A stretch of 64,000 nucleotides of DNA from Bacillota bacterium (GCA_022706825.1 JAKJBU010000002.1:932-64931); one strand, 5' to 3'. Shown: positions 18,093 to 53,239, counted from the stretch's first letter. A program made the numbers and translations. The notes: generated from the letters alone by a model not told the origin.

Positions 18093-18402
18093 CACAATAG
18101 AAGAATGCGACATATCTGAAGTTTGTGGTCATCCTACATAGCACTGGCCTTATATAACAGCGAGCACTTATTGGCTTTGGGTAACAGAATCGAGTGAAGA
18201 TGCGCAGTAAAATCCGTGGGATTTACGTGAGGTAAATCCAGCACATACTTACACGAGGTAAGGTTTATGTGCGTCAGGATTTTACAAGTATCAAGCTCTG
18301 ATTCTGTCCAAAGCTAATACCGTGCGAGTCGGGATACAAGGCTATTGCTCTGGGAGTATGACTGCAAACTTATAGTTATGTCGCATTATTCTTCTATTGT
18401 GA
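18093..18402. repeat. Rod-like hyper-palindromic repeat element, copy A (about 310 nt)
   Basis: The left arm CACAATAGAAGAATGCGACAT... is the imperfect reverse complement of the right arm ...ATGTCGCATTATTCTTCTATTGTG. The hairpin centre is near 18255. The core 18151-18395 is about 90% identical to 49457-49695. Confidence 0.8.
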
Positions 18403-48886: not shown

Positions 48887-49150
48887 TTAAATCTTATATA
48901 TATACCATCTTGAAGTATCTATTTCAAATCTGAGTTCAAAGGGTTTGATCTGATTGCCGATGCGTGTCTGGCAGGTAAACTTGAGCATCCTGTTGCCGGC
49001 AAACTTGTCAAGCTCTCTTTTTATTACCCGGTCTACTTTTACCGTGATCAACTCCGATCTGTCATCAAGATACCTGAACCTTACAGGTACAGGATTGCCT
49101 TCCAGATCAAAAAGTACTATTGCCTCAACAGGCTTTCTGAGCATCTTCAT
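48887..49150 (-). CDS. Hypothetical 87-aa protein, convergent with the polymerase gene
   Basis: Good RBS GGGGGTG. I recognise no family. Confidence 0.55.
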   Translation of the reverse strand: MKMLRKPVEAIVLFDLEGNPVPVRFRYLDDRSELITVKVDRVIKRELDKFAGNRMLKFTCQTRIGNQIKPFELRFEIDTSRWYIYKI

Positions 49151-49183
49151 TTAGTTCACCCCCTATATGAAATAATTTTCTTA

Positions 49184-49704
49184 TTGTGCAGAATAGAAGA
49201 AAATTGCGCAATATATACAGGTTTGTAAAGTACTCCGACTGTAGGGGAAGTATGTTCTCCTCACCTTCCAAAGCCAGCAAAATCACTGGCGAAGGTCCCA
49301 TCTCTGCGGGCCCGTCTGGTTATTTTGCCTGGAGGTATTCCCGTTCCGGGGTCAGGTGGAAGGTTTCGTCGAAGATATCTTCCCCACGTCGGTATTTGCA
49401 ATTCTTTTATATACAAGCTTTTTCTTACTATGCATCCTGCAGAGCACTATCCTTGTATAACAGCGAGCACTTATTGGCTTTGGGCAACAGAATCGAGAGA
49501 AGATGCGCAGTAAAATCCGTGGGATTTACGTGAGGTAAATCCAGCACATACCAACAGGAGGTTGGGTTTATGTGCGTCAGGATTTTACAAGTATCAAGCT
49601 CTGATTCTGCCCAAAGCTAATACCGTGCGAGTCGGGATACAAGGTTATGCTCTGGAAGTATGACCGCAAACTGATAGCTATGTCGCATTCTTCTTTTTAT
49701 GTGC
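49184..49704. repeat. Rod-like hyper-palindromic repeat element, copy B, with a nested hairpin insertion of about 160-200 nt in its left arm
   Basis: The core 49457-49695 is about 90% identical to 18151-18395. The outer arms GCAGAATAGAAGAAAATTGCGCAAT... / ...ATGTCGCATTCTTCTTTTTATGTGC correspond to those of copy A. The extra segment at about 49227-49432 contains the CCGAC-GGGGAAG...CTTCCCC-GTCGG hairpin (49235-49392). Confidence 0.8.
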
Positions 49705-49815
49705 TTTAATATTAGCATGTTTTTGCCTGTTCAGAAACTTCGCTGTAGCATTGTATAAGTAAATTCTGCCGATTTATCTGGTTAATTCATAAGAATAAAG
49801 GATATTTCTTAGAAT

Positions 49816-49835
49816 ATTATACGAACATATGTTCG
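49816..49835 (-). promoter_or_regulatory. Second LexA box CGAACATATGTTCG abutting a -10 TATAAT on the minus strand
   Basis: The minus strand reads CGAACATATGTTCGTATAATAT, which is 21/22 identical to the polymerase-gene promoter. It points toward repeat copy B and the 87-aa ORF. Confidence 0.7.
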
Positions 49836-49878
49836 AATTAATACATATATTTTAGAAAGCCAACGGTAAAAAAATGTA

Positions 49879-49905
49879 ACCAAACATTCATGTGTACATA
49901 GTATA
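49879..49905 (+). promoter_or_regulatory. sigma-K-type promoter module, copy 1 (AC-16 nt-CATAGTATA)
   Basis: ACCAAACATTCATGTGTACATAGTATA fits the Bacillus sigma-K consensus AC-N16/17-CATAnnnTA. It is one of four related copies. Confidence 0.55.
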
Positions 49906-49954
49906 TAAGTGGAAAGGTGAACAACCTATAATTATCCGGGAGGGGGTTTGAACT

Positions 49955-50224
49955 GTGGCAAGCGGATTTGGAGTGGCCAATCCGGTCACAGCCGCAGGGT
50001 GTGGGGCATCGCCGGCGCCTGTCGGAGGTTTTTTTGGATTCAGCAATGCATGGATTTGGATAATATTGCTTTTGATATTTGTACTTCCACGGCTTGGATT
50101 CAAGGGGTGTACCGGTGCCGGAGGCTTGTTCGGAGGATTTAGCTGGATTTGGATTATTATATTGATAATCTTCCTGGTCCCGGGTATCTTGCCTGGCTTT
50201 CGCCTTGGCGGGTTTGCCATATAA
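49955..50224 (+). CDS. Small Gly-rich hydrophobic protein with an internal duplication (YjcZ-like tiny-TM sporulation protein resemblance)
   Basis: GTG start after RBS GGGAGGGGG. Two repeats of [Gly/Cys-rich - GG(F/L)FG(F/G)FS - WIWIIxLLIFxxP]. Confidence 0.6.
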   Translation: MASGFGVANPVTAAGCGASPAPVGGFFGFSNAWIWIILLLIFVLPRLGFKGCTGAGGLFGGFSWIWIIILIIFLVPGILPGFRLGGFAI

Positions 50225-50257
50225 GATACAAAAATTATAATGAGGGGAGGTGAAAAT

Positions 50258-50491
50258 ATGGCAAACGGATTAGGCTCAACCGGATGTGGATGCGGCGCTC
50301 CCACAGCAGTAAGTCCGATTATGGACTTATGCAAAAACAATGGATTCCTCTTACTGCTTCTGTTGTTTGTGCTCTTAGCATCATGCACAACTTTGGGCAG
50401 AGAGAAAAACTTTATCTTTATCATAGTACTTGCTATAATCGCTTTTGGCGGTTTTGGAAGAACCTTCGGATTCGGTGGTAATGATTATTAA
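50258..50491 (+). CDS. Small Cys/Gly-rich protein with two hydrophobic segments (paralog a)
   Basis: ATG follows GGGGAGGTG. MANGLGSTGCGCGAP...GFLLLLLLFVLLASC...FIFIIVLAIIAFGGFGRTFGF. About 85% identical to the product of 50764-51000. Confidence 0.65.
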   Translation: MANGLGSTGCGCGAPTAVSPIMDLCKNNGFLLLLLLFVLLASCTTLGREKNFIFIIVLAIIAFGGFGRTFGFGGNDY

Positions 50492-50502
50492 ACTGTAACG
50501 AC

Positions 50503-50570
50503 AGGGGGACATGGGGACGGGGACACGCGAAACGTCCCCGTGTCCCCGTCCCCGTGTCCCGGATTTTTTG
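50503..50570 (+). terminator. REP-like GC-rich hairpin plus T-run (terminator), same family as 18.4 kb and 46.9 kb
   Basis: GGGACATGGGGACGGGGACACGCGAAACGTCCCCGTGTCCCCGTCCCCGTGTCCC followed by GGATTTTTTG. Confidence 0.75.
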
Positions 50571-50575
50571 TTGTC

Positions 50576-50602
50576 ACCAAATTAATGCATGTACATATTA
50601 TG
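50576..50602 (+). promoter_or_regulatory. sigma-K-type promoter module, copy 2 (orphan; no ORF follows)
   Basis: ACCAAATTAATGCATGTACATATTATG, nearly identical to copy 4. It is followed by about 100 nt of hairpin-forming non-coding sequence and then copy 3. Confidence 0.45.
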
Positions 50603-50714
50603 GAATTGGGAAAGGGTGTCAACCATACAGTCCTGACCCAGATGCCATAACTCACCTCAAGCATGGAAGGGGGCTTTAATGCCCGCTTTCATGCTTTAAG
50701 CGGGAAACTTGTCA

Positions 50715-50741
50715 CCAAATATACGCATGTACATAAAATAG
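50715..50741 (+). promoter_or_regulatory. sigma-K-type promoter module, copy 3 (AC-16 nt-CATAAAATA)
   Basis: ACCAAATATACGCATGTACATAAAATA, 23 nt upstream of ATG 50764 with RBS AAAGGGGGTG. Confidence 0.55.
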
Positions 50742-50763
50742 AATTGAGAAAGGGGGTGACATC

Positions 50764-51000
50764 ATGGCAAACGGATTAGGCTCAACCGGATGCGGATGCG
50801 GTGCTCCTGCGTCAGTAAGTCCGATCTTAGATAAGTGCAAGGGTAACGGATTCCTCTTGCTGCTTCTGTTGTTTGTGCTCTTAGCATCATGTACAACCTT
50901 GGGCAGGGAGAAAAACTTCTTCTTCATAATAATACTTGCAATAATCGCTTTCGGCGGTTTTGGAAGAACTTTCGGTTTTAACAATGGCACAGCTATATAA
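50764..51000 (+). CDS. Small Cys/Gly-rich protein with two hydrophobic segments (paralog b)
   Basis: MANGLGSTGCGCGAPASVSPILDKCKGNGFLLLLLLFVLLASC...; paralog of the product of 50258-50491. Confidence 0.65.
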   Translation: MANGLGSTGCGCGAPASVSPILDKCKGNGFLLLLLLFVLLASCTTLGREKNFFFIIILAIIAFGGFGRTFGFNNGTAI

Positions 51001-51030
51001 CGAGATTTGTTCTTGAAAGGAGGTGTAAAT

Positions 51031-51348
51031 ATGGTTGACGGAGTAGCAGGCAATGCTTTTGGAGGCGGAAACTTTGATCTTCTTCAGGATAGCATTGGAG
51101 AGACTGTTACAATATTTACTACAAGCGGAGGCCTGTCAGGATGCGGCTTTACGGGAGTAGTACTGGCTGTAAATCCATGTTTTGTCAGGCTTATTACCCA
51201 TATAGGAGCGGCTCCGAGCTGTGCATTGGGCAGCTGCTGCGGAGTACCCGACGGAGGTTACGGCAGCTATGGCAATGTGAGAACGGTAGGATCGGTAACG
51301 GATATTCCCCTTGACAGGATTGCCGCAGTTGTACGTAATGCCATTTAG
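51031..51348 (+). CDS. 105-aa protein with a conserved beta-rich core and a Cys/Gly-rich central insert (paralog a)
   Basis: ATG follows AAAGGAGGTG. IGETVTIFTTSGGLSGCGFTGVVLAVNPCFVRLITHIG...VGSVTDIPLDRIAAVV; paralog of the product of 51496-51828. Confidence 0.65.
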   Translation: MVDGVAGNAFGGGNFDLLQDSIGETVTIFTTSGGLSGCGFTGVVLAVNPCFVRLITHIGAAPSCALGSCCGVPDGGYGSYGNVRTVGSVTDIPLDRIAAVVRNAI

Positions 51349-51359
51349 CAAGCTGTATC

Positions 51360-51387
51360 GAAGGGCAGGGTAAGTAACCTGTCCTTC
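51360..51387 (+). terminator. Hairpin GAAGGGCAGG / CCTGTCCTTC
   Basis: 10-bp stem with one mismatch. A T-rich stretch lies 20 nt downstream. It is related to the hairpin at 51851. Confidence 0.45.
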
Positions 51388-51422
51388 CTATTACTCTGAA
51401 CTTTTTGTTTATACAGGCTGTC

Positions 51423-51449
51423 ACCAAATAAATGCATGTACATATTATG
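51423..51449 (+). promoter_or_regulatory. sigma-K-type promoter module, copy 4
   Basis: ACCAAATAAATGCATGTACATATTATG. The leader then forms AATTGGG...CCCAATT before RBS AAGGGGGTG. Confidence 0.5.
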
Positions 51450-51495
51450 GAATTGGGAAAGTCAGAAACCCAATTATGTGAAAGGGGGTGTAACA

Positions 51496-51828
51496 ATGGC
51501 AAATGGAATTGGTTATGGCGGAAATTTTAACGGCAATTTCTTTGACTTACTCTCAGACCTTATAGGAGAGACTGTAACAATATTCACTACAAGCGGAGGC
51601 CAGTCAGGCTGCGGTTTTACAGGTGTAATACTTGCTGTAAACCAATGCTTCGTCAGGCTTGTAACCCACATAGGGCCGGCTCCGGGATGTGCTCTTGGCA
51701 ATGCATGTCATAGTCCATGCTGTCCTACAATCGGCTGCAGCGGAGGCTTTAGCAATGTGCGTTCGGTAGGCTCTGTAACGGATATACCTCTTGACAGGAT
51801 TGTTGCGGTAGTAAGCAATGCTGTATAA
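51496..51828 (+). CDS. 110-aa protein with a conserved beta-rich core and a Cys-rich central insert (paralog b)
   Basis: IGETVTIFTTSGGQSGCGFTGVILAVNQCFVRLVTHIG...CHSPCCPTIGCSGG...VGSVTDIPLDRIVAVV. Confidence 0.65.
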   Translation: MANGIGYGGNFNGNFFDLLSDLIGETVTIFTTSGGQSGCGFTGVILAVNQCFVRLVTHIGPAPGCALGNACHSPCCPTIGCSGGFSNVRSVGSVTDIPLDRIVAVVSNAV

Positions 51829-51850
51829 ATTTCTTATGCAGTGAATAAAT

Positions 51851-51878
51851 GAAGGACAGGGGGGCGCCCTGTCCTTCC
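51851..51878. terminator. Bidirectional GC-rich hairpin between convergent genes
   Basis: GAAGGACAGGG / CCCTGTCCTTC stem between the small-protein cluster (+) and the bactofilin gene (-). Confidence 0.55.
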
Positions 51879-51885
51879 GCTGTTC

Positions 51886-52245
51886 CTATGTGTTATCGGT
51901 TATTATCTTGCAGTTGCCTATGAATATGGCACCTTCATCGATAATGACGTTTTTTACTGTGATATCGCCTACAAGCTTTGCAGTATGGGTAATATGAAGT
52001 TGAGAGGTTGCAATTACGTTGCCTTCTATGACTCCGGCAACAAATGCATTTTCGGTCTTTACGTTGCCTTTGACAGCACCTTCTTCTCCGACAATCAGGT
52101 TGCCGGATATATTAAGGCCTCCAAGCACTTTGCCGTCCAGCCTTACAGTACCGTCTGCGTTTACAGTACCTTCAAATATTGTTCCGCGGCCTATAATTGT
52201 ATCTACTCTTTCACTGTTTATTGATTTTTTGCCTGAGCCAAACAT
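51886..52245 (-). CDS. Bactofilin (CcmA-like polymer-forming cytoskeletal protein)
   Basis: MFGSGKK...DTIIGRGTIFEGTVNADGTVRLDGKVLGGLNISGNLIVGEEGAVKGNV is a bactofilin beta-helix repeat pattern. ATG 52245 follows GGAGG. Confidence 0.85.
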   Translation of the reverse strand: MFGSGKKSINSERVDTIIGRGTIFEGTVNADGTVRLDGKVLGGLNISGNLIVGEEGAVKGNVKTENAFVAGVIEGNVIATSQLHITHTAKLVGDITVKNVIIDEGAIFIGNCKIITDNT

Positions 52246-52282
52246 TTTACTACCTCCAATCTCCATAATCCAATGCTTCTGA

Positions 52283-53239
52283 TCAGTTAAAATAGTTTGC
52301 GGGATTGACGTTTTTTCCATTCAGCTTTACTTCATAGTGAAGATGGGTTCCGGTGCTTCTGCCTGTATTGCCTACCTTTGCAATGGCTTGTCCCTTCTTG
52401 ACCTTGTCTCCCTGCTTGACCAACAGCTTTGAATTGTGGGCATACAGGGTAGTGAGGCCATATCCGTGGGATATTATCACCATTCTTCCATAGCCGGCAT
52501 TCCAGCCTGCGAAGGATACTATACCATCACCGGTTGCTGAAACAGTCTGTCCGTAGGAGGCCGCAAAGTCAATTCCCTTGTGGAATTCGCTGCCCCTGCT
52601 GGTAAAGGGGTTTTTCCTATAGCCAAAGCTTGCAGTTATTGAGGCGGTCACAGGTTTGACGGAGGGCTTGGCCATTAAATATGCAAGCTGTTTTTTTATC
52701 GGATCTATGGAATCAGCTATTGTCTTTTTTTGAATTGCAATTTTATCGGTTAAAGATGCAAAGTCAGCCTCAATGCTTGCTAGCTTCAAGGACATATCTT
52801 GGTCTGATTTTTCTGTTAACAAGCTTACGGGAGAACTGATTTCCGGAGAAACGAGTTTGATCTCGATGCCTTCCTCAGGGGAGGGATTAATACCCACCGC
52901 TTTTTTGACCTCATCCAGCATTCTGAAATTTTCGGCCAATTGCTTTTGTACTTCTTCGGAACTTCTCTGCAGATTCTCAATTTCAATCTTCTGGGAAGCG
53001 TTGATGGTTGTAAGCTTTGATATTTCTTTTCTACTGGCATCATATTGAAGCTTGAGTGCGGATAATGCATAAAAACTTATTCCGGACGTTATAATAAGCA
53101 GTGCAATGGATATGGAAACAAATCCGGGGAACCATGCCGGAGTCCTGAAGGATTTTACGTTGGATTGACTCTCGGGAATAAACATGAAGGTAGTATAGTT
53201 TATTTTGTTTTTCACCAGTGCTTTTTTCAAATGAATCAT
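52283..53239 (-). CDS. M23-family peptidoglycan DD-metalloendopeptidase with N-terminal TM and coiled coil
   Basis: HKGIDFAA...DGIVSFAGW...GYGRMVIISHG...TLYAHNS...GNTGRSTGTHLHYEV. Confidence 0.88.
   Translation of the reverse strand: MIHLKKALVKNKINYTTFMFIPESQSNVKSFRTPAWFPGFVSISIALLIITSGISFYALSALKLQYDASRKEISKLTTINASQKIEIENLQRSSEEVQKQLAENFRMLDEVKKAVGINPSPEEGIEIKLVSPEISSPVSLLTEKSDQDMSLKLASIEADFASLTDKIAIQKKTIADSIDPIKKQLAYLMAKPSVKPVTASITASFGYRKNPFTSRGSEFHKGIDFAASYGQTVSATGDGIVSFAGWNAGYGRMVIISHGYGLTTLYAHNSKLLVKQGDKVKKGQAIAKVGNTGRSTGTHLHYEVKLNGKNVNPANYFN

Follow-up and report, generated by a model that had tools for sequence, protein, structure and literature searches.

A 64,000-nucleotide (nt) window of DNA from a Bacillota bacterium (GCA_022706825.1, JAKJBU010000002.1:932-64931) carries a compact cluster of five small protein-coding genes, which we designate A, B1, B2, C1 and C2 in their order along the plus strand. 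The genes are interspersed with four copies of a single promoter module, one of which precedes not a gene but a candidate small RNA (sRNA) encoded between B1 and B2. The cluster is conserved and vertically inherited within one uncultured Clostridia lineage, and its proteins belong to families that no Pfam or NCBIfam model names. Here we describe the genes, promoters and RNA, and argue that the cluster is probably a late-sporulation locus with sigma-K-type promoters, whose four transcription units would supply spore-envelope components together with their own RNA regulator. All positions refer to the window, by which we mean the whole 64-kb stretch that was analysed.

The genes of the cluster and their protein families

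An initial annotation of the window had proposed five small plus-strand open reading frames (ORFs), and all five hold their positions: homolog alignments support the start codons, as do Shine-Dalgarno sequences 6-9 nt upstream, with the alignments favoring shorter starts over the longer versions of B1, C1 and C2 found in a mechanical ORF list. The duplications recognized at that stage are equally clear. B1 and B2, described as about 85% identical, match over 227 nt at 85% identity in DNA and 86% in protein, and C1 and C2 match at 83% over 139 nt and 79% over 81 nt, with 70% identity in protein. Gene A is internally duplicated, with the motif GGfFGfS.WIWII.L.IF..P occurring twice in its translation and a corresponding repeat in its DNA. 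The synonymous-biased divergence that had been suggested as a check on the two paralog pairs is present, most differences falling at third codon positions; the nonsynonymous (dN) and synonymous (dS) distances are 0.10 and 0.65 for B1/B2 (dN/dS 0.16) and 0.25 and 1.14 for C1/C2 (dN/dS 0.22). Given these ratios, the third-position bias, and the existence of 788 homologs of family C, 212 of family B and 22 of family A (the last at 66-94% identity), the ORFs are real genes under purifying selection. A 36-nt block spanning the ribosome-binding site (RBS) and the first five codons is repeated at the start of all five (61-78% identity to the reference copy), so that otherwise unrelated protein families begin with MA(N/S/G)G or MVDG.

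The proteins were originally sorted into three families, a count that effectively reduces to two superfamilies, since A and B are linked through their N-terminal head and first helix (hhalign probability 87%, E 4e-6); on this profile similarity we treat A and B as one divergent superfamily. Each has a conserved, Gly/Cys-rich head of 25 residues (MA-G-G-NP-AAGC-P), a pair of strongly hydrophobic stretches with a short polar turn between them, and a Gly/Phe-rich tail (GGFGRTFGF or PGILPGFRLGGF). A, B1 and B2 are predicted to be two-helix membrane hairpins. A resemblance of family A to the YjcZ-type sporulation proteins had been suggested, but TIGR01732 matched none of the five window proteins, 42 family B members or 23 family A members at E<=1.

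Family C is of a different kind. C1 and C2 have no hydrophobic segment and no signal peptide, contain no lysine and only 3-4 arginines, and carry a net negative charge. Their family is the largest of the three, with 354 representatives at 50% identity in an exhaustive search (the 788 homologs come from a word-indexed search) and at least 383 loci in species-representative genomes, including those of cultured Ruminiclostridium, Clostridium, Acetivibrio and Defluviitalea. About 25 alignment positions are invariant; they include three cysteines (in NxCF, PGCALG and NxC), with three or four invariant cysteines overall. The loop that follows the third cysteine ranges from a few to more than 40 residues and abounds in Gly, Tyr and Cys, including repeats of the GYGG type.

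Two AlphaFold monomer models of family C (overall predicted local distance difference test scores of 57 and 62, rising to 70-83 in core blocks) begin with an N-terminal helix, after which come five antiparallel, strongly bent strands (H-E-E-E-E-E), the variable loop lying between strands 3 and 4. Searched against the Protein Data Bank (PDB) with Foldseek, the models retrieved almost only proteins of the Sm fold, namely Hfq, LSm, the RimP C-terminal domain, MnxE and the GerQ filament, at target-normalized TM-scores of 0.6-0.8. Family C is therefore likely to be a Sm-like barrel, a fold guessed at in the initial annotation and now modeled with moderate confidence, while homology to Hfq, LSm, RimP, MnxE or GerQ is unproven. 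At the sequence level, the RimP C-terminal barrel (PF17384) gave weak, sub-threshold matches in 7 of 30 distant family C members (best E 4.8e-4) and none in the window proteins, a likeness that we take to be one of fold only. DUF2642, also named as a candidate, had no Pfam match at E<=1 among the window proteins or at E<=0.1 among the 30 distant members, and the same proteins showed neither LSM/Hfq Pfam matches nor Sm1/Sm2 motifs. A PDB profile search with family C returned chance-level matches only (AlgW and Cu/Zn superoxide dismutase, all E>0.1); the GerQ chain 8zra was absent from it at E<=10, and Spore_GerQ gave no Pfam match. The acidic, cysteine-rich composition argues against RNA binding and fits a cross-linkable structural subunit.

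The suggestion that these proteins had not been described is borne out. Neither Pfam nor NCBIfam yielded more than noise or sub-threshold matches for the five proteins and 95 homologs, so that none of their models names A, B or C; source annotations of the homologs read "hypothetical protein" or are obvious mis-transfers; and no description of the three families was found in the literature on YjcZ, Sm-like spore coat proteins and GerQ filaments. Sigma-K-controlled small spore-envelope proteins are a well-known kind; what is new is the set of unnamed protein families, together with a seed-bearing sRNA absent from Rfam.

Four promoter modules and a candidate small RNA

The promoter module reported in four copies is present as a 43-nt element at four sites (65-98% identity to the reference copy), in each of which AC-16 nt-CATAnnnT can be read (Table 1). 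A search of the 64 kb for ACCAAA-N8-TGTACATANNAT with up to two mismatches finds these four sites and no others, against an expectation of 0.06, and none of 100 shuffled sequences reaches four. The fit to the sigma-K consensus, also proposed earlier, gains weight from distant genomes, where the same architecture recurs 5' of family C and family B genes amid different flanking sequence. Among 97 family C genes from 79 genome loci of very diverse Clostridia, AC-N16/17-CATAnnnT occurs within the 330 nt preceding the conserved GETVTI motif in 73, compared with a background of 0.087 per 330 nt in the same loci; the regions that lack it belong mostly to downstream genes of tandem pairs. When sites are anchored on CATAnnnT, 83 of 116 unique sites have AC at sigma-K spacing, for which chance would give about 12% by a rough estimate that assumes equal base frequencies. 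Aligned sites display a recurring GTaACA or GTCACC in the -35 region and CATAAnATgTAATA in the -10 region, with spacers unrelated between genera; the conserved unit upstream of family C is the motif, not the sequence around it.

The AC/CATAnnnT architecture is found as well before family B arrays at two distant loci, L080 (3399-4785) and L081 (3450-4252). These arrays hold two to four tandem copies (four in L080) and a shorter 52-residue relative behind the same GTAACCAAA...TGTACATAGTAT promoter, with neither family C nor the sRNA. By motif, then, the cluster promoters appear to be of the sigma-K type, from which we infer sigma-K dependence in vivo, and expression of the cluster in late sporulation is likely.

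The second module copy had been singled out as having no ORF behind it. No plausible ORF is indeed present there, but the position is not empty, as a conserved, structured RNA follows. In an alignment of the B1-B2 spacer from seven genomes, about 95 nt behind this module are more conserved than the flanking genes, and they include an invariant 18-nt stretch, GATGCCATAACTCACCTC, with compensatory substitutions in the stem of the hairpin 3' of it. All nine cluster-bearing genome loci contain the 18-mer without a mismatch, as do 16 of 38 matching metagenome stretches; all 16 have the promoter and the hairpin, with cluster genes wherever the flank sufficed, and the remaining matches, which have neither promoter nor hairpin, we take to be chance. 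The structure predicted by RNAalifold from 14 distinct sequences comprises a 5' stem, the 18-nt stretch as a single-stranded seed, and a 16-bp terminal hairpin. Across the whole structure 94.6% of cells are paired and six pairs have changed on both sides, values that none of 500 shuffles reaches, and pairing falls to 36-55% when the partners are slid; the terminal hairpin on its own is 98% paired, with four covarying pairs, and here too none of 500 shuffles attains the observed covariation.

A covariance model built from the RNA scores the window copy at 115.7 bits and finds nothing in 73 distant loci carrying family B or C, restricting the RNA to the full-cluster lineage. Within that lineage a further promoter module invariably comes directly after the RNA, also at loci L005 and L006, where the RNA stands between B and C. 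A permissive Rfam scan of 49000-52500 found no family for it; the single hit, of a miRNA model on the hairpin after B1, was taken as chance. We consider it probable that the RNA is a real transcript. One proposed origin, as an inverted copy of the 5' end of a cluster gene (reverse complement GAGGTGAGTT-ATG-GCA-TCT-GGG), was rejected, with alignment scores of 7-11 against a null of 7.0 +/- 1.5 (maximum 16); for B1 only it is suggestive, and we do not claim it.

The seed is complementary in two blocks to the starts of the cluster mRNAs, one covering the Shine-Dalgarno sequence (GGAGGUGA or GGGGGUGA) and the other AUGGCA. Predicted duplex energies are -23.2 kcal/mol for B1, -22.8 for C2, -20.9 for B2, -20.4 for A and -19.3 for C1, all within the top 0.1-0.5% of 42,644 windows in the 64-kb sequence. 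None of 48 control genes pairs as strongly as any of A, B1, B2 or C2, the best control reaching -19.6 even though each was allowed its best candidate start. In ten other genomes, starts of the family genes reach -17 to -29, compared with control medians of -10 to -15. Action of the sRNA on these initiation regions is a tentative proposal, to which we give somewhat less than an even chance, and such pairing would be one possible reason for the repeated 36-nt start block and the MA(N/S/G)G starts.

Several hairpins punctuate the cluster. The terminator-like hairpin after B1 was missed by the terminator scanner, its loop exceeding the scanner's limit, and was recognized by inspection and inverted-repeat detection. 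A weaker hairpin after C1, likewise not picked up by the scanner, is possibly a leaky terminator, and the GC-rich hairpin beyond C2 is likely a two-way terminator. The C2 leader contains, right after the predicted transcription start, a perfect 7-bp hairpin, AATTGGG (51451-51457)-N11-CCCAATT (51469-51475), to which the 5' stem of the sRNA (GGG...CCC) is analogous; a 5' hairpin could be a stabilizer common to transcripts from these promoters.

Table 1. Features of the cluster, in window coordinates
Feature	Position	Strand	Description
Promoter module 1	49875-49917	+	-35 AC at 49879, -10 CATAGTAT at 49897-49904; precedes A-B1
Gene A	49955-50224	+	89 aa, GTG start; Gly/Cys-rich head and two repeated hydrophobic helices (WIWII...)
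Gene B1	50258-50491	+	77 aa; MANGLGSTGCGCGAP head and two hydrophobic helices
Terminator-like hairpin, then T-run	50506-50567	+	22-nt arms, 95% complementary; would end the A-B1 unit
Promoter module 2	50572-50614	+	98% identical to module 4; precedes the small RNA
Candidate small RNA, ~95 nt	50602-50702	+	Start inferred near 50607; conserved, covarying
Predicted 5' stem of sRNA	50607-50640	+	RNAalifold
Single-stranded seed of sRNA, GAUGCCAUAACUCACCUC	50641-50658	+	Invariant, 18 nt
16-bp terminal hairpin of sRNA, then UUUAA	50659-50696	+	RNAalifold
Promoter module 3	50710-50752	+	Sigma-K type; precedes B2-C1
Gene B2	50764-51000	+	78 aa; B1 paralog
Gene C1	51031-51348	+	105 aa; soluble, acidic; modeled Sm-like barrel, conserved Cys, short Gly/Tyr/Cys loop
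Weak hairpin 3' of C1, AAGGGCAGG-loop-CCTGTCCTT	51361-51386	+	No T-run directly after; read from sequence
Promoter module 4	51419-51461	+	Sigma-K type; precedes C2
Gene C2	51496-51828	+	110 aa; C1 paralog with Cys-rich loop
GC-rich hairpin between C2 and convergent bactofilin gene	51851-51877	unstranded	Terminator scanner
36-nt start-region block	49936-49971, 50239-50274, 50745-50780, 51012-51047, 51477-51512		DNA repeat

Conservation, host range and surroundings of the locus

Hidden Markov model searches of homolog-bearing loci show that the order A-B-B-C-C recurs in related contigs from metagenomes and from metagenome-assembled genomes (MAGs). A block consisting of orf87 (minus strand), the genes A, B, B, C and C with the RNA between the two B genes, and then bactofilin and M23 peptidase genes (both minus strand), UPF0180 and DUF72 is kept in more than 20 contigs, in which the neighboring genes are 66-100% identical. 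The best genome match is a MAG labeled "Clostridia bacterium" (100%), and a Lutisporaceae MAG is among the next best (91%). Variants exist, with a single B in L005, B and C only in L006, and an extra B in L009.

The cluster had been characterized as amplified and duplicating, a view that the comparison does not bear out. C1 is 81-97% identical to the first C gene of other genomes and 70-77% identical to any second one, and the converse is true for C2, so that the duplication must be older than these genomes; the corresponding signal for B1 and B2 is weaker. Since gene order is conserved in more than 20 contigs, with the same flanking genes and positional orthologs of C1 and C2, and the paralogs are separated by a dS of 0.65-1.14, the duplications are old and stable. 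Recent amplification was rejected on the positional orthology and the dS.

Outside the lineage, family C occurs alone or in two or three tandem copies amid unrelated housekeeping genes, in Ruminiclostridium, Clostridium thermopalmarium, C. bovifaecis, Acetivibrio straminisolvens, Defluviitalea, Epulonipiscium and Oscillospiraceae. The named hosts of homologs are Clostridia and one Negativicutes MAG, besides two contigs of one MAG labeled Caulobacteraceae (L009 and L059; ACM3TR_09315-09330 and ACM3TR_18600-18605). That MAG has a complete cluster with Clostridia-like flanks, and its two contigs are probably mis-binned or mislabeled. The Lutisporaceae MAG (L003, 2250-2716) has B-B-C-C and the sRNA, with no family A match in the space of about 470 nt where A would be expected, which may reflect a frameshift or loss. 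Carriage of the cluster as phage cargo was considered and rejected, as no relative of family C was found among viral contigs.

On its upstream side the cluster is preceded by orf87 (48887-49150, minus strand) and, between the two, by a 272-nt repeat at 49433-49703, about 170 nt upstream of promoter 1, with a second copy at 18130-18401 (91.5% identity) and a partial inverted match to itself. The corresponding interval, about 473 nt long in the window, measures only 87 nt in L114, a nearly identical contig, and the repeat has the look of a small non-coding mobile element, similar to a miniature inverted-repeat transposable element, that inserted recently. A perfect LexA/DinR-type box, CGAACATATGTTCG, lies at 49822-49835, about 45 nt upstream of the promoter 1 -35 element and within a 145-nt stretch (49701-49846) that is 77-97% conserved in all relatives. 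The box most likely serves the divergent orf87, from which, in the window, the inserted repeat has moved it to a distance of about 670 nt. Several relatives have a Y-family DNA polymerase gene immediately downstream of orf87 and in its orientation, an arrangement like that of YolD/UmuC. On the downstream side, the bactofilin and M23 peptidase genes (51886-53239, minus strand) overlap by 38 nt, converge on C2 and lie beside the cluster in all related contigs; the peptidase has an N-terminal coiled-coil/DivIC-like segment.

Proposed function and comparison with known systems

The features described above suggest the following course of events. Sigma-K RNA polymerase would read all four promoters, the first yielding an A-B1 transcript that ends at the terminator, the second the sRNA of about 95 nt, the third B2-C1 and the fourth C2. 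Because the sigma-K-type promoter is shared, all products would appear together in the mother cell while the outer layers of the spore are built. The most likely destination of A, B1 and B2 would be the membrane surrounding the forespore or that of the mother cell, with the Gly/Cys-rich head in the cytoplasm, and C1 and C2 would most likely act as self-assembling building blocks, cross-linkable through Cys and Tyr, of the coat or another outer spore layer. The seed of the sRNA would most likely pair with the Shine-Dalgarno sequence and AUGGCA, tuning or delaying translation. We infer a spore coat or envelope function for the cluster proteins as a group; for family C in particular, we consider a role in the coat or outer layer about evenly balanced.

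A number of observations weigh against this interpretation. The sigma-K consensus is short, with two specified bases at -35 and five at -10. The structural matches of family C are all weak, with Foldseek E-values of 0.03-0.45, and searches of Pfam, PDB profiles and distant members found no sequence link between family C and any known coat protein. Part of the seed energy reflects the pairing of a generic anti-Shine-Dalgarno core (UCACCUC) with RBSs of unusual strength. The terminal hairpin of the sRNA is followed by only three U residues, so that transcription could read through into B2 and the element would then serve as a leader, and the absence of the RNA from distant genomes with family B or C means that it is not essential to those proteins. 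Finally, no hint of function comes from the neighboring genes, which are of unrelated housekeeping types both in the window and in distant genomes.

The alternative that survives best, though we regard it as unlikely, is a developmental module of the toxin-antitoxin or mother-cell-lysis type, in which A and B would damage membranes, the sRNA would hold them back until lysis in the manner of a type I antitoxin, and C1 and C2 would be coat proteins carried as passengers. A and B are small, very hydrophobic two-helix proteins, the seed is complementary to their RBS and start codon, and all units share a late mother-cell-type promoter; type I loci likewise place small hydrophobic membrane proteins beside an RBS-complementary RNA. 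Type I toxins, however, are typically shorter than 60 residues and have one helix, whereas A and B have 77-89 residues, two helices and a conserved 25-residue Gly/Cys head. The sRNA lies on the same strand as the cluster genes, neither overlapping nor antisense to any of them, and pairs equally well with the C2 mRNA, whose product is soluble. Distant family B arrays have no such RNA, and the promoters of the cluster are developmental.

It is also improbable, at roughly one chance in ten, that the promoters are read by sigma-E or some other factor, or are active outside sporulation, and that the products are ordinary envelope or stress proteins. This possibility draws on the shortness of the consensus, on the absence of recognizable sporulation genes beside the cluster in the window, and on the fact that sigma-E and sigma-K promoters have a common -10 element, differing at -35 (ATA as opposed to AC; PMC3789822). 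In the cluster, however, the -35 element is AC and not ATA, as it is (within GTaACA or GTCACC) at the 83 of 116 sites from distant genomes; the excess of the motif before family C genes was put at about 800-fold per region; a scan for sigma-70 sites found no excess (8, compared with 5.5 +/- 2.4 in shuffled sequence); and the families were found in assemblies of Clostridia and Negativicutes, the two Caulobacteraceae-labeled contigs aside.

We give very little credence to a third alternative, in which C1 and C2 would be RNA binders like Hfq and LSm and would partner the embedded sRNA in an RNA-chaperone system. Hfq and LSm rings are the best structural matches, having the same overall fold as the family C models with the family C insert at the position of the variable linker between Sm1 and Sm2, and a conserved sRNA is encoded between the genes. 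Family C nevertheless differs from those rings in being acidic and free of lysine, in its invariant residues (Gly, Thr, Cys and Pro, not those of the Sm1/Sm2 type) and in its want of sequence matches to the Hfq/LSm families; its conserved cysteines suggest a part in cross-linking or in binding metal, not RNA, and the family is widespread in genomes that have no such sRNA. Weakest of all, to the point of being hardly credible, is the idea that the ORFs encode precursors of ribosomally made, bacteriocin-like modified peptides amplified as tandem paralogs: they are small, tandem and Cys/Gly-rich, and a radical-SAM gene lies 3.6 kb downstream, but its product (matching Radical_SAM_N, Radical_SAM and DUF3362) is presumably a housekeeping protein of the YgiQ/UPF0313 type and is not adjacent to the cluster, the conserved synteny block contains no maturase, protease or exporter, protein length is conserved in full with no leader/core pattern, and in other genomes family C genes occur on their own, with unrelated neighbors.

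A late-sporulation locus of spore-envelope components with an RNA regulator thus remains the reading that we prefer. A more specific form of it, which we advance as a speculation with odds well short of even, holds that the cluster has a developmental riboregulator of its own, a sigma-K-driven sRNA directed against initiation regions that would set the timing or stoichiometry with which hydrophobic membrane hairpins and Cys-rich coat subunits of the Sm fold are translated, and with family C as a widespread, unrecognized family of Sm-fold coat proteins. If this were true, the RNA would be, to our knowledge, the first sRNA shown to control assembly of the outer spore layers in Clostridia. Little is known of the proteins that make up the spore coat and outer layers in Clostridia, and most of them are unrelated to their counterparts in Bacillus. 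Family C, being widespread, unnamed and marked by a very clean sigma-K footprint, is therefore a ready candidate for a common component of the clostridial spore surface. The sRNA would offer a simple case for studying post-transcriptional control in the late mother-cell program, for which very few regulators are known, and A and B, if they prove to be spore-membrane or lysis factors, would join a short list of small proteins that shape the spore envelope.

A close parallel is with coat and exosporium genes of the sigma-K regulon, such as cotA, cotE and the bclA genes of C. difficile and the cot genes of B. subtilis. These too have AC-16/17-CATAnnnT(A) promoters, encode small Cys/Gly/Tyr-rich products without a signal peptide, and are scattered singly or in short tandem sets with promoters of their own. 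The families described here match them in these respects and are found almost only in assemblies of Clostridia and Negativicutes. They differ in having no sequence similarity to named coat families and in that their place in the spore is a predicted one; three of the five products are predicted integral membrane hairpins, which is unusual for coat proteins.

Among known structures, family C is most usefully compared with GerQ, which is sigma-E-dependent in B. subtilis, and with MnxE of the Bacillus Mnx complex (PDB 9bxa_E). Like the GerQ filament (PDB 8zra), formed by a self-assembling spore-coat protein (PMC11405398), and like MnxE, it is modeled as a small beta-barrel in which five strands accompany an N-terminal helix. 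The comparison gives TM-scores of 0.50-0.53 when normalized by query and 0.59-0.71 when normalized by target, at Foldseek E-values of only 0.06-0.45, and the match to GerQ is weak (E 0.45). Family C shares no sequence similarity with either protein and has, in addition, invariant cysteines and the variable Gly/Tyr/Cys loop between strands 3 and 4. YjcZ proteins, for their part, combine a Gly-rich head with a very hydrophobic Leu/Ile/Phe helix and their genes occur in multiple tandem copies in spore-forming bacteria. Families A and B resemble them in these respects, and differ in their two helices, the conserved NP..AAGC..P head and the distinctive tail.

The sRNA has a counterpart in SurC of Bacillus, a small non-coding RNA that the mother cell makes from a sigma-K promoter (PMC9147052), with which it would share its predicted promoter class. 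In contrast to SurC and other sporulation sRNAs of Bacillus, however, the RNA described here lies within a protein-gene cluster, carries a seed complementary to the initiation regions of its neighbors, and belongs to a single lineage of Clostridia.

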